A DNA stretch of 64,000 nucleotides from an uncultured Actinomycetota bacterium (GCA_963794355.1 CAWCDN010000010.1:27819-91818), one strand, 5' to 3'; counted from the stretch's first letter, positions 38,003 to 42,150 are shown. A program made the numbers and translations. Notes: generated by a model from the sequence alone, not told the origin.

Positions 38003-38024
38003 CGCCACGCCGCCCGCTCATCGG

Positions 38025-39245
38025 GGCGGTCTCAATGGGTCAGCGCAACACTTCCTTGATTCGAGGAGGTCGCGATGGCCCGTCAACATCGGCAACGGTT
38101 GTCCCCTGCAGACATCGATGAGATCTGGAGGCGGATGCGAGCCGGCCATTCGATGAAGCCGGCAGCTCGAGCGCTTGGTCTTCCGACCAGCACGGTGCGC
38201 TCGTACCTGGTGCGGTGGGGCGGGGTCATGCCCGAGCCGCGACACCGTGGATCGCGCCGGTTGAGTCTGGCCGAGCGCGAGGAAATCTCGCGAGGCCTGG
38301 CTGCGGGTCGGTCGCTGCGCATGATCGCGGCCGAGCTGGGTCGCGCGCCGTCGACGATCAGCCGTGAGGTCGCCGGCAATGGCGGCCGACGGGGCTACCG
38401 GGCGACCGTGGCCGACCAGGGAGCGTGGGCCAGAGCGACCAGGCCGAAGACGTGCAAGCTGACCACCAACCCGGTGCTGGCTGGCGTCGTGGCTGCCAAG
38501 CTGCAACGACGGTGGTCGCCCCAGCAGATCGCCGGCTGGTTGAAGCGGACCTATCCCGACGACCCAGGGATGCACGTGTCGCACGAGAGCATCTACCGCA
38601 CCCTGTTCGTGCAGTCGCGCGGTGCGCTGCGCAAAGAGCTGACCGCCTACCTGAGGACCGGACGGGTGCTGCGACGCCCCCAGGGGGTCAGGATCCCCGA
38701 TGGTCGCGGGAGTCGTCCGGGGATCGTGAACATCAGCGAGCGGCCCGCTGAAGCGAGAGACCGGGCGGTGCCCGGGCATTGGGAAGGTGATCTCGTCTTC
38801 GGCAAAGGCATGTCCCCGGTCGCGACCCTGGTGGAGCGATCCACCCGCTACCTGCTGCTGGTCGGTCTGCCTGACGGCAACCACAAAGCCGACGCCGTCG
38901 CCGACGCCCTCGCCGCAGCAGTCGCACACCTGCCCGAGCATCTGGCGAAGTCGCTGACCTGGGACCAGGGCCACGAGATGGCCGAACACGCACGGTTCAC
39001 CCAGGAGACCGGGATCGAGGTCTACTTCTGTGACCCCCAAGTCACCCTGGCAGCGCGGCAGCAACGAGAACACCAACGGACTCCTGCGCCAATACCTGCC
39101 CCGGCGACTCGACTTCCGGACCCTGACCCAAGCCGACTTCGACGACATCGCCGACAAGCTCAACGGACGCCCTCGACAGACCCTCGGCTTCAAGACACCA
39201 TCACAGGTACTGGCCGAGGTGTTGCGTTGACGGCCTGAGCCCGCA
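38025..39245 (+). mobile_element. IS30-family insertion sequence, copy 1 (1221 bp)
   Basis: 27-bp imperfect IRs GGCGGTCTCAATGGGTCAGCGCAACAC / GTGTTGCGTTGACGGCCTGAGCCCGCA; GG dinucleotide on both flanks (38023-24, 39246-47). Confidence 0.92.
38075..39230 (+). pseudogene. IS30 transposase with one +1 frameshift (C5 run, 39034-39038)
   Basis: LSLAEREEI, PSTISRE, WSPQQIA, GHWEGDL, TWDQG; C-terminus SPWQRGSNENTNGLLRQY..NGRPR is in another frame. Confidence 0.88.
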
Positions 39246-39308
39246 GGCATGTGAGTGCGTTGCGATTGCGTCACGTCCGGTGCCGACCGTTGGTCTTTGC
39301 CCCAGACT

Positions 39309-40166
39309 GTGCGCGTGGCAATCCTGCGCGTTCTGACCGTGGCTACGGCTGCAGTCGCCCTCAGCGCGTGCGGCGCAGCACACGACAGCACCGTAGCGAC
39401 CAAGCCTCTCTCACCGGCGCCACCACCGCACGCGGCCACCGCCTCCGGCAGGCCGGTTCAGTTCAGTGCAGTCCGCCAGAATGTCGGCCCAGGACTGCAC
39501 CCCGACCAAGCCACGAAGCAGGTTCTCAGCGGGATGGGAGATCCCTCCGTGACCTCGGCCGTGGTCGGTGCCGCCCCAGCAGACAGCGGAGGTTCGGGGC
39601 AGTGGCTCACGGTCACCATCGAGAGTGACCAGGCGGACGGCATCAAGCAGGCCTGGCTGGCGCAACTCATGCAAGGGGCCGTGGCGGACCTGATGCGGAC
39701 CGACGAGACCACCACCAGCCAGGTGCTCGACGGCGCCCAGCTCGTCGACAAAGACGCGTCCGGACGCCAGGTCGTGACTCCCTTAGGCCACGGCGCGGTC
39801 GTCGGCGGACAGGTCTTCGACTCCCCCGGCGACGACGCCCTGCGCCAACAGGTAGCAGCCGCAGCCGAGAAGTACGGCCTCACCGTCGACTCCGTCCAGG
39901 TGCTGCACCCCCTGGACAGCGCCCTCGCCGTGACCATGACTGTCCCTGACGGTCCCCTCCATGGCTGGAACCTGACCAGCCTTGAAAACGCCATCGAGGG
40001 CAAGACCACACCGACGTCAGTGCCCAACGTCGAAGGGCTCTACCTGGAACTCCACTCGCCGTCCGGAAAGCCGGTCGTGAAGTCCGGCTATGCCTCCCGG
40101 ATACCAGGCGGCGGCGGCTGGTCCGCCCCCGGCCAAGACGAGCGGTTCGGCATCAACCACGGCTAG
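39309..40166 (+). CDS. Hypothetical lipoprotein
   Basis: Signal peptide with lipobox LSAC, Pro-rich linker, globular C-terminal part. Confidence 0.75.
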   Translation: MRVAILRVLTVATAAVALSACGAAHDSTVATKPLSPAPPPHAATASGRPVQFSAVRQNVGPGLHPDQATKQVLSGMGDPSVTSAVVGAAPADSGGSGQWLTVTIESDQADGIKQAWLAQLMQGAVADLMRTDETTTSQVLDGAQLVDKDASGRQVVTPLGHGAVVGGQVFDSPGDDALRQQVAAAAEKYGLTVDSVQVLHPLDSALAVTMTVPDGPLHGWNLTSLENAIEGKTTPTSVPNVEGLYLELHSPSGKPVVKSGYASRIPGGGGWSAPGQDERFGINHG

Positions 40167-40203
40167 ATCGCCGAGAGTGACCGCGCGGACAGCGGATGCG
40201 GGC
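40161..40203 (+). repeat. Inter-module site, copy E (left arm degenerate)
   Basis: GGCTAGATCGCC-N13-CGGACAGCGGATGCGGGC; same 13-nt spacing as copies B2 and F; overlaps the lipoprotein stop. Confidence 0.65.
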
Positions 40204-40223
40204 TCTTCTTGGACCGGTCTGAC

Positions 40224-40811
40224 CTACTTTGAGGGGCGGATCCTTGGCGTGTAGACGTTCGGGAGGCGGTCGCTCCAGCTGTCTGACAACGCGTTATCGG
40301 CGAATAATCGCGAGCCTGTGGACGAACTCACGCTGATACCGGCTCGGATCCATCGGGGCCTCTGCAGACATGCCCGGTTGAACGAAAGCCAGAGAACTCG
40401 ACCGTTGCGCCCCGCTCTGTACGAGCTGCACATTCGCTGAGCGTGCGTGTTCTTGTCGCCGAGGATGAAATCAGTGCCCTTGTGGCTCTCAAAGAGGGTG
40501 CCTTCATACATGTCCGCGTTGGTCTTGAGTGAGAGAGAGATGTCGCGCCACCTCAGGCCCTTCATCGAACTGGACCGTAGGGTCACGCCGATGCGAATCC
40601 GAGTAGTGCCATGCGCGACGCGGAGTCGAATCACATCGTTCTGACGGTTTCGCACGGCATGGTGGTATGGACCGGAGAAAGAGGGCATTCCCTCTACGTC
40701 GTGTGCGGCGTCGACATGCCTGTACGTGGCACCCATTGCCGGCGTTGCAAGGCCGAAGACCACTGCTGTGAAGGCCGCCAGAACCGCCCCGGTTGCGAGC
40801 ATCTGTTTCAC
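40224..40811 (-). CDS. Hypothetical secreted basic protein
   Basis: Signal peptide MKQMLATGAVLAAFTAVVFGLATPAMG; two Cys; visibly lower GC than backbone. Confidence 0.72.
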   Translation of the reverse strand: MKQMLATGAVLAAFTAVVFGLATPAMGATYRHVDAAHDVEGMPSFSGPYHHAVRNRQNDVIRLRVAHGTTRIRIGVTLRSSSMKGLRWRDISLSLKTNADMYEGTLFESHKGTDFILGDKNTHAQRMCSSYRAGRNGRVLWLSFNRACLQRPRWIRAGISVSSSTGSRLFADNALSDSWSDRLPNVYTPRIRPSK

Positions 40812-40876
40812 GAGGCCGGACAGTACAGGTTCGGTCGCGAACCTTCTTGTGGAAGGCGCAAACTCGCCGACTACGG

Positions 40877-40914
40877 CGCCCGCTCATCGGCATGTGCGCG
40901 AGCGCGGACAGCGG
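40877..40914 (+). repeat. Inter-module site, copy F
   Basis: CGCCCGCTCATCGGCATGTGCG-CGAGCG-CGGACAGCGG; first 14 bp identical to 38011-38024. Confidence 0.82.
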
Positions 40915-42136
40915 CGGTGAGTCGTCAATGGGTCAGCGCAACACTTCCTTGATTCAAGGAGGTTGTGATGGCACGTGGTTATCGGTGGTTGTCTCTGCGG
41001 ACGAGGACGAGATCTGGACGCGGCTACGGGAGGGGCATGCGGCTAAGCCGACGGCTCGAGCATTGGGACTCTCGACGGGGACGGTGCGTGCCTATCTGGT
41101 GCGCTGCGGTGCGATCCGTCCAGCGGCTCGACGGCGGTCGCCGGTGCCCGGTTGAGCTTGATCGAACGGGAGGAGATCTCCGGTGGGCTGGCGGCCGGCG
41201 CCTCGTTACGTGTGATCGCGGCCGGGCTGGGTCGTGCTCCGTCGACGATCAGTCGTGAGGTCGCCACTCATGGCGGGCGGGATCGGTATCGTGCCGCGCC
41301 AGCTGATCAGCAGGCGTGGGCACGGGCGCGGCGTCGGCAGGCATGCAAGCTGGCCACTCGTCCGGTGTTGCGTGCGATGGTGGCCGAGAAGCTCCAAGAC
41401 GAGCAGTGGTCACCTCAGCAGATCGCTGGCTGGCTGAAGACCACCTACCCCGAACGACCCGGAGATGCAGGTGTCGCACGAGACCATCTACCGCACCCTG
41501 TTCATCCAGTCCCGCGGCGCGTTACGCCGGGAGTTGACCGCTCATCTGCGCACCGGGCGGGTGATCCGACGTCCGGCGGGGACCCGGCTACCGGATGGGC
41601 GTGGTGGCCGGCCGGGGATCCTCAACATCTCCGAACGACCAGCTGAGGCCGTCGACCGAGCCGTGCCAGGTCATTGGGAAGGCGACCTGGTCTTCGGCAA
41701 ACGCATGTCTCCGGTCGCGACACTGGTCGAACGCTCGACCAGGTTCGTGATGCTGGTGGCGCTGCCAGGCGGGCACAAAGCAGACCTGGTCGCCGACGCG
41801 TTGGCCGCGAAGATCACCACCCTGCCCGCGGCGCTGACTCGGACGTTGACGTGGGACCAGGGCCACGAGATGGCCGAGCACGTCCGGTTCACCCATGCAG
41901 ACAGGTGATCGAGGTCTACTTCTGTGATCCCCGGTCGCCGTGGCAGCGCGGGAGCAATGAGAACACCAACAGGCTGCTGCGCCAGTACCTACCCCGGACG
42001 CTCGACTTCCGGACCCTGACCCAGGCCGACTTCGACGACATCGCCGACAGCTCAACGGCCGCCCTCGACAGACCCTCGGCTTCAAGACACCATCACAAGT
42101 ACTGCCGAGGGGTTGCGTTGACGACCTGACCACATC
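40913..42136 (+). mobile_element. IS30-family insertion sequence, copy 2; transposase has several frameshifts and the termini are altered
   Basis: Left end TCAATGGGTCAGCGCAACACTTCCTTGATT shared with copy 1; fragments SLIEREEIS, VSHETIYR, GHWEGDL, SPWQRGSNENTN in different frames; right end GTTGCGTTGACGACCTGA. Confidence 0.88.
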
Positions 42137-42150
42137 GGCATGTGAGGACG
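42131..42150 (+). repeat. Inter-module site, copy G (right junction of IS copy 2)
   Basis: CACATCGGCATGTGAGGACG; matches B2 and the right flank of IS copy 1. Confidence 0.78.

Follow-up and report, generated by a model that had tools for sequence, protein, structure and literature searches.

A candidate IS30-family parasite of 28-bp sites that appear to bound gene modules in soil Actinomycetota

Insertion copies and split sites in the window

We analysed a stretch of 64,000 nucleotides from an uncultured Actinomycetota bacterium (GCA_963794355.1, CAWCDN010000010.1:27819-91818), hereafter called the window, in which two copies of an IS30-family insertion sequence (IS) lie among 28-bp, imperfectly palindromic sites arranged in an array with short gene modules. 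The reading that we consider probable is that this element of ~1.22 kb inserts with near-absolute preference into the centre of the 28-bp site, and that it is a parasite of the cassette sites of an Xer-like tyrosine recombinase. Window positions are counted from the first letter of the stretch, and labels beginning with L designate loci in other sequences. The IS copies and the sites of the window, whether intact, split or scarred, are as follows (IRL and IRR, left and right inverted repeats):

38025-39245, +: IS30-family copy 1, 1221 bp, with tips that fit the family consensus of 79 loci
38025-38049, +: IRL of copy 1, GGCGGTCTCAATGGGTCAGCGCAAC
39221-39245, +: IRR of copy 1, which terminates in ...CCTGAGCCCGCA
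38075-39230, +: transposase gene of copy 1, predicted HTH_38 and rve domains, D239, D297 and E331, one +1 frameshift bridged
40915-42136, +: IS30-family copy 2, heavily decayed, with 10 or more indels relative to its closest relatives
38011-38024, +: left half of the copy 1 target, CGCCCGCTCATCGG, half-site matrix score 18.9 of a possible 18.9
39246-39261, +: right half of the copy 1 target, GGCATGTGAGTGCGTT, half-site score 23.5
40901-40914, +: left half of the copy 2 target, unit b of a doublet, CGCGCGGACAGCGG
42137-42152, +: right half of the copy 2 target, GGCATGTGAGGACGAT, score 19.9
40877-40904, +: intact site, unit a of the doublet beside copy 2, CGCCCGCTCATCGGCATGTGCGCGAGCG, matrix 26.7 bits
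36317-36344, +: intact site, leftmost of the array, CGCGCGGACAGCGGCATGTCAGGGCAAT, matrix 27.3 bits
37782-37833, +: intact doublet, sites 37782-37809 and 37806-37833, matrix 27.4 and 21.1 bits
37725-37763, +: scar of a third insertion, with right half-site-like GGCAATGTGAGGACG, a shared GACG and the IS right end
40182-40205, +: scar of a fourth insertion, with left half-site ..CGCGGACAGCGG ending at 40195, then A, then TGCGGGCTC

The transposase of copy 1, read through its frameshift, is a product of 384 aa, with HTH_38 at residues 61-102 and rve at residues 231-324 (Pfam). It scores 266.2 bits against the NCBIfam model of IS30 transposases (NF033563, cut-off 80), the second-best model being IS481 with 55 bits for a cut-off of 224. 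The spacing of the catalytic residues D239/D297/E331 is 58/34; a DDE core with DD(33)E-type spacing is expected in the IS30 family. The 25-bp terminal inverted repeats agree at 18 of 25 positions. The transposase model, the domains, the inverted repeats, the length and a 2-bp target duplication all assign the element, by its sequence, to the IS30 family. Compared with the nearest relatives, the sole frame-breaking change of copy 1 is a net +1 at IS position ~1009, located in a C run near 39033-39041, which could be a homopolymer sequencing error. As for copy 2, its left tip is devoid of GG and carries a 5-nt insert (CGGTGAGTCGTCAATGGG). An earlier note on this DNA had described both right ends as TGA, 7 nt and a shared sequence. 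In copy 1 the 7 nt are GCCCGCA, the conserved end of the IS family; in copy 2 they are CCACATC, which makes an aberrant end.

Words taken from the 3′ 200 bp of the IS (39055-39291 and 41899-42135) reach 10-50x the depth of the neighbouring DNA in soil metagenome runs X1-X3, which indicates many related copies in soil communities.

Both copies split their site between CGG and CATG, with duplication of GG; for copy 1, the terminal GG of 38011-38024 is the first copy of the target duplication and the initial GG of 39246-39261 is the second. The strings from which the earlier note had argued that the two copies share a target are exact, namely TGAGCCCGCAGGCATGTGAG at 39236-39255, TGACCACATCGGCATGTGAG at 42127-42146, CGCCCGCTCATCGGCATGTG at 40877-40896 and CGCGGACAGCGGCATGTCAGG at 36319-36339. 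Removal of copy 1 and one GG (38011-38024 joined to 39248-39253) does restore the sequence found at 40877-40896, and joining the flanks of copy 2 does give CGCGGACAGCGGCATGTGAGG, which matches 36319-36339 at 20 of 21 positions. The proposal that copy 1 had hit a left half-site and copy 2 a right half-site has to be replaced, however: there are rather two adjacent full sites forming a doublet, and both IS copies cut a full site at the equivalent position. In this doublet, unit a covers 40877-40904 and unit b covers 40901-40914 plus 42137-42152, while copy 1 sits in a single site with a left arm of the unit-a type.

When the window was searched with a position matrix derived from sites reconstructed in other genomes, intact sites were found across the 64 kb only at 36317, 37782, 37806, 40877 and 42125, all on the plus strand. 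In the scar of the third insertion, the final 17 nt of the IS right end (GACGGCCTGAGCCCGCA, 37736-37752) are followed by GGCATGCCCGG / GGCATG. In that of the fourth, TGCGGGCTC (40197-40205) is the 9-nt tip of an inverted IS right end, and in run X3 one contig connects the IS right tip (39245) with 40195, the strands being opposite; it represents the intact form of the inverted insertion at 40195, in another population. In runs X1 and X4, contigs lead from the DNA left of copy 2 directly into CATGTGAGG(G/A)CGT..., the unoccupied version of the site. The window array has been struck at least four times, always at the same position of different sites. At this base composition, the probability of a given 10-mer at a fixed place is ~1e-6, so that the shared junctions are not due to chance.

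Target of the element in other genomes

Relatives of the IS were collected by scanning one genome per species, which gave 79 loci with 55-85% protein identity (~200 related loci overall) hosted by Nocardioides, Pedococcus, Angustibacter, Kineococcus, Aeromicrobium, Tetrasphaera and many soil metagenome-assembled genomes. In close relatives the IS ends read GGYGSTCTCAA...CCTGARCCCGCA, and across loci the length is mostly 1210-1229 bp, with outliers at 1184, 1198 and 1241-1242 bp. Three contigs (L057, L070 and L078) are exactly the IS, from tip to tip, which implies that assemblers break at IS tips.

The flanks are of two classes: right flanks begin with GGCATG.. or with CCGATG../CCGCTG.., and left flanks finish with ..CATCGG or ..CATGCC. 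One orientation has ..CA(T/G)CGG on the left and GGCA(T/G).. on the right, its reverse complement, ..CATGCC / CCGATG.., being found in the other; the two classes are the two orientations of one site with an asymmetric centre. In 53 of the 64 insertions with both flanks, the IS is bordered left and right by the same dinucleotide, compared with a chance expectation of ~5. The duplication is GG in 22 cases and CC in 26, with one or two each of CG, GC, TC and AC; the IS thus enters its site in both orientations, as 48 duplications are GG or CC.

The empty target, rebuilt by removing the IS and one dinucleotide and orienting the result, is CGnCCGCTCAtCGG^CATGaGCGggCGtT. The logo of 48 sites has 28 informative positions and forms an imperfect palindrome centred on the duplicated GG, with C at +1 and A at +2 in 48/48 sites and C at -2 in 45/48; ~75-83% of the sampled insertions lie in this 28-bp site. 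The earlier note had foreseen such a logo from the window, and had reasoned that unrelated flanks elsewhere, or a core belonging to the IS itself, would speak against target specificity. The flanks of the other copies are mutually related, and the core GGCATGTGAG lies outside the IS. Indeed, that GGCATGTGAG is target and not IS follows from the IS-only contigs, from the two classes of flanks and from a filled/empty pair in L071, where a doublet is empty at 8340/8364 and filled at 5178, the difference being the IS plus GG. Within single genomes, IS copies with 100% identity are present at different sites and in both orientations (L003/L004, L040-L042 and L053/L054), which shows recent activity of the IS in genomes other than that of the window.

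Several observations on the junctions deserve mention here. At L009, L015, L017 and L019, the left and right flanks belong to opposite orientation classes and there is no duplication; such mixed flanks are expected from recombination between IS copies residing in different sites. More distant relatives in Kineococcus (L068, L070 and L073), with a protein identity of 58-61% and with perfect tips, GGCGGTCTCAAC...GTTGAGACCGCC, sit in a different palindrome, ..TCTCAGAAACGGT / ACCGTTTGTGAGA.. (..AAACGGT|ACCGTTT..), for which reason L068 and L073 were excluded from the target logo; L073 also has a homologous tyrosine recombinase gene, 2 kb from the IS relative. At L017:7946-7990, a left half-site (CGCCCGGACAGCGG) runs straight into unrelated DNA (CTACTTGTTTCATTGACC...), which may be another element at the same CGG^ position. 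Transposase genes of the IS110 family (DEDD) are frequent in or beside the arrays, often 30-300 nt from a site (L017:6004-7395, L035:6151-7344, L020:553-1734, L037, L025, L050, L200, L201 and L214), and no split core was seen for these IS110-family elements in arrays.

Sites as module boundaries and a candidate recombinase

Around the IS copies, 126 intact sites were found in 627 kb, against 0 in shuffled sequence. A second sample was selected by site, scanning metagenome contigs for site doublets, and comprises at least 120 loci and 502 kb; among the matches listed, these contigs hold 197 sites with one IS fragment, so that the sites exist independently of the IS.

Adjacent sites are co-oriented in ratios of 82:2 and 125:9 (at least, among the loci listed), with a median spacing of 695 bp. 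Module genes are distributed as 25 co-oriented and 14 anti-oriented with the sites (64% co-oriented), their orientation having been assigned by a GC3-GC1 criterion, as the longest open reading frame (ORF) is unreliable in high-GC DNA. Since the sites keep a near-constant orientation whereas the genes divide 25:14, site orientation goes with the array rather than with the direction of transcription. Complementarity of the two arms within a site is 6.15/11, compared with 6.13 ± 0.09 for shuffled partners, and arm types combine freely, every combination being found; this lack of covariation argues that no hairpin constraint applies and that each arm travels with its own module. Several pairs of sites are 97-99.7% identical for 300 nt to one side but not to the other, the similarity breaking off in the core (L012/L071, L017/L065 and within L071). 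The module genes are highly diverse (the largest cluster of 528 ORFs occurs in only 6 loci), with products such as RTX proteins, glyoxalase, SnoaL, DinB, MarR, TetR, ParE and methyltransferases. Taken as a whole, the comparison suggests that the sites are recombination sites delimiting mobile modules.

An Xer-like tyrosine recombinase of 302-308 aa recurs adjoining the sites. It surfaced through its fixed position beside them, clustering of the neighbours having yielded no dominant family, and it has more than 7700 homologues, the best 120 of which are 74-99% identical to the query. The P0073 gene (924 nt) is 99.8-100% identical in six loci (L202-L207) that display four combinations of upstream and downstream context. 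Upstream of the gene the homology extends for 44-61 nt, as far as ..CATGCCG|CTCCTAG.., and downstream of it for 18-28 nt, as far as ..GGTCGTGCCG|ATG.., and both limits fall at the site core; L205 and L202, for example, have a common left context and different right contexts. These boundaries have the appearance of an attL/attR pair, as would result from a circle with one site integrated into another. Six contigs with P0065, among the matches listed, all stop at ..CAGCGGCAG, and sites also abut a recombinase gene in L172 and at L031:8252-9007, L160:6033-6944, L174:4780-5687, L200:6001-6915 and L214:5001-5927. The protein is Xer-like at the domain level only, with ~75 bits against XerC/XerD models whose cut-offs are 279-335, and it reaches 40 bits against the integron integrase model (cut-off 265). 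The link between recombinase and sites is drawn from the module boundaries. With sites at module boundaries and a core that bounds a mobile tyrosine-recombinase module, the suggestion of the earlier note that this IS parasitises cassette recombination sites is supported.

The arrays of L160, L174, L199 and L200 switch site orientation in blocks, and in L160, L174 and L200 the recombinase lies at the switch; this suggests inversions between inverted sites.

Could the sites instead be intergenic hairpin palindromes of the REP or terminator type, merely targeted by the IS, with no cassette system at all? We regard this as unlikely. The sites of the window are intergenic, 10-25 nt past stop codons, and form imperfect palindromes in which positions +13 and +14 are T, yet arms belonging to one site show no greater complementarity than arms drawn from different sites, and Rfam returned no match. 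Sites also stand between ordinary genes in L107, and five other IS families are known to target REPs (PMC1525189); such repeats do not explain a site orientation of this constancy that is not linked to transcription, nor near-identical DNA that switches partner exactly at the core, nor the presence, in different contexts, of a 100% identical recombinase module with the core as its limits.

The earlier note had also raised the possibility that the IS generates the sites. Under this explanation the IS or its transposase would make them as excision footprints, carried flanks or sequence derived from the inverted repeats, which is very improbable, as intact sites far exceed IS copies in number (197 with one IS fragment in the 502 kb of listed matches). 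The IS scars beside half-sites at 37725-37763 and 40182-40205 could be seen as products of this kind, but IS-only contigs end at the tips and not in the arms, identical IS copies carry different arms, and the filled/empty pair differs solely by the IS and GG. The 2-bp centre of the site does resemble the junction between abutted inverted repeats of IS30 (PMC9333248), and CCGCCTGA in the IRR is weakly similar to CCGCTCA in the arms; the cassette ends (CATGAGCGG...) are nevertheless unlike the IS ends (GGCGGTCTCAA...).

It is scarcely credible that the two window copies, although co-oriented, 2.9 kb apart and ~95% identical over their final 200 bp, go back to a single insertion, with a later segmental duplication that took in both the IS and its flank, since their left arms differ (CCGCTCAT against CGGACAG), the same junctions occur in dozens of independent insertions elsewhere, and their interiors are only ~78% identical, each copy having its nearest relative in a separate lineage from another genome (L005, 82.8%, for copy 1; L067, 90.5%, for copy 2). 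Interior identity and nearest relatives together point to two independent insertions from two sublineages.

We thus return to the IS as a probable parasite of recombination sites. In the IS30 paradigm, a circle or dimer whose ends abut attacks nearly palindromic hot spots with a 2-bp stagger (PMC9333248), and the insertions described here agree with what it predicts. By analogy, the element studied here would leave as a circle or form a tandem dimer, with abutted ends 2 bp apart, and a transposase dimer would read both arms and the invariant CGGCA core; the flanks show a cut with a 2-bp stagger at the central GG and the duplication of this GG. On comparative anatomy, the 28-bp site would be the duplex core site of the ~305-aa Xer-like tyrosine recombinase, which would move gene cassettes bearing a right arm at their 5′ end and a left arm at their 3′ end, the recombinase gene itself being such a cassette. 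An IS inside the crossover core would split the site and block recombination there, so that the IS and its two neighbour cassettes would be welded into one unit. Whether the sites and the cassette-borne recombinase form an undescribed cassette system of soil Actinomycetota, with the IS30 element as its dedicated core parasite that freezes and rides cassette pairs, is in our estimate an even bet. The lineages with arrays include Nocardioidaceae, Intrasporangiaceae, Jiangellaceae, Kribbella and Angustibacter, and our literature search found no paper on these sites, arrays or IS target.

One has to weigh several points that speak against this interpretation. The case is built on the comparison of sequences, and the loci, selected either by IS or by site, are biased samples and not whole genomes. 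Eleven of the 64 insertions lack a clean duplication, and both copies in the window are defective, so that activity in this genome is not evidenced here. The recombinase gene is absent from the 64-kb window. The recombinase genes of L160, L174 and L200 lie between inverted sites, an arrangement that allows inversion and not excision, and another enzyme could act on the sites, the recombinase gene being a mere passenger. Finally, the L107 array separates ordinary-looking permease, ABC transporter and aminotransferase genes, which would also fit a dispersed intergenic repeat.

Known systems and surroundings of the array

The element resembles IS30 of E. coli and IS1655 of Neisseria in having helix-turn-helix (HTH) and DDE domains, inverted repeats of ~25 bp, a length of ~1.2 kb and a 2-bp duplication at the centre of a near-palindromic target that is entered in both orientations. 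IS1655 reportedly has a palindromic consensus target, a result attributed to Kiss et al. 2007. The hot spots of IS30 are sporadic and have no known function, whereas the target described here is natural and highly repeated, has an invariant CGGCA core and appears to delimit modules. For the IS30 family, the 48 independent insertions provide the clearest natural target logo so far.

The closest analogy, by lifestyle and not by membership, would be the IS1111-attC elements, which are comparable, together with the group IIC-attC introns, as mobile elements specialised in sites that separate cassettes and disrupting the site that they enter. Both are described as spreading through cassette arrays and disrupting sites (PMC11187229, PMC3001079). 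IS1111 elements are of the DEDD type, RNA-guided, with subterminal repeats and no duplication, while the present element has an IS30-type DDE transposase and a 2-bp duplication. Group IIC-attC introns are retro-elements; the element is again different in being of the DDE type, and its target is a simple duplex site and not a folded attC. An IS30-type DDE transposase would thus occupy the niche held in integrons by IS1111 elements and group IIC introns.

Elements with a strict or near-strict preference for a single position in a repeated intergenic palindrome also offer a parallel, namely IS1397, ISKpn1, ISPpu9, ISPpu10, ISPa11 and ISRm22 (PMC1525189, PMC12288879). The REP-targeting families are IS3, IS110, IS4, IS256 and IS5, IS30 not being among them, and IS1655 copies lie beside REPs in only 2/13 and 2/6 cases (PMC1525189). 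Unlike REPs, the target here lacks hairpin covariation and behaves as a recombination site.

As regards the arrays, they are similar to integrons in their co-oriented short modules, diverse small genes, shuffling at sites and tyrosine recombinase. They differ in that the sites are 28-bp duplex palindromes cut centrally, compared with folded attC sites of 60-140 nt cut at one end, and have a consensus of their own without covariation of the arms; in that the recombinase gene lies within a cassette, not on a fixed platform with attI and Pc, and is not of the IntI type; and in that the genes are co-oriented with the sites in only 64% of cases. Integrons are generally reported as absent from Actinomycetota. 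The pdif/Xer modules of Acinetobacter plasmids likewise have 28-bp sites, with two arms of ~11 bp, a short centre and a simple tyrosine recombinase, but they have another sequence and alternate in orientation, where the present sites are direct, lie in chromosomal arrays and have an element-borne recombinase. The length and symmetry of the 28-bp site are compatible with a dif-like 11-6-11 organization, with a recombinase that falls below the XerC/XerD cut-offs and a site sequence that we take to be unlike dif. A site-specific IS can serve as a natural marker of functional DNA sites, and here it points to a 28-bp site that organizes arrays; if the link to the recombinase is true, these arrays would represent a second, mechanistically different route to cassette arrays, and an experimentally tractable one, given a site of 28 bp, a recombinase of ~305 aa and an IS of 1.2 kb whose target is defined.

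The modules of the window carry the following predicted genes:

36433-37692, +: RTX calcium-binding repeat protein (Pfam HemolysinCabind, E = 1.7e-31)
37859-38002, +: 47-aa predicted membrane peptide; 37870-37981 is 81% identical to DNA downstream of L071_6193
39255-40166, +: predicted lipoprotein with a lipobox-like LSACG, between copy 1 and the scar at 40182
40224-40811, -: secreted protein of unknown family, from the ORF list

The RTX protein of the window is 37% identical to that of an RTX module gene in L071, and RTX proteins of ~415-435 aa recur in different arrays (window 36433-37692; L071:2171-3412 and 6576-7817; L199:6505-7812); the two L071 copies are 99.8% identical and their downstream modules differ. 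No Pfam match was obtained for the predicted lipoprotein at 39255-40166. Apart from the IS, the site arms and one small module, the window array shares no synteny with the other loci.

The ~1.8 kb between a DUF4012 gene and the first site (34653-36430) hold no convincing gene, and the ORFs in 34.65-36.43 kb and 42.2-42.5 kb have no Pfam match, so that no recombinase remnant is seen at the array head. A search of 34-44 kb against Rfam (E <= 1) returned only tRNAs and left the site itself unmatched. A tRNA-Val(CAC) gene lies on the minus strand at 42416-42490, 264 bp from the last site, and a tRNA-Gly-Cys-Val cluster at 43470-43734 is divergent from it; elsewhere, arrays show no preference for the vicinity of tRNA genes, which occur in 7 of 51 loci, close to the chance level. 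The array region (35000-42400) has a G+C content of 0.61-0.70, with a third-position G+C of 0.70-0.80 compared with 0.87-0.97 in the flanking genes, and this low G+C fits horizontally acquired DNA.

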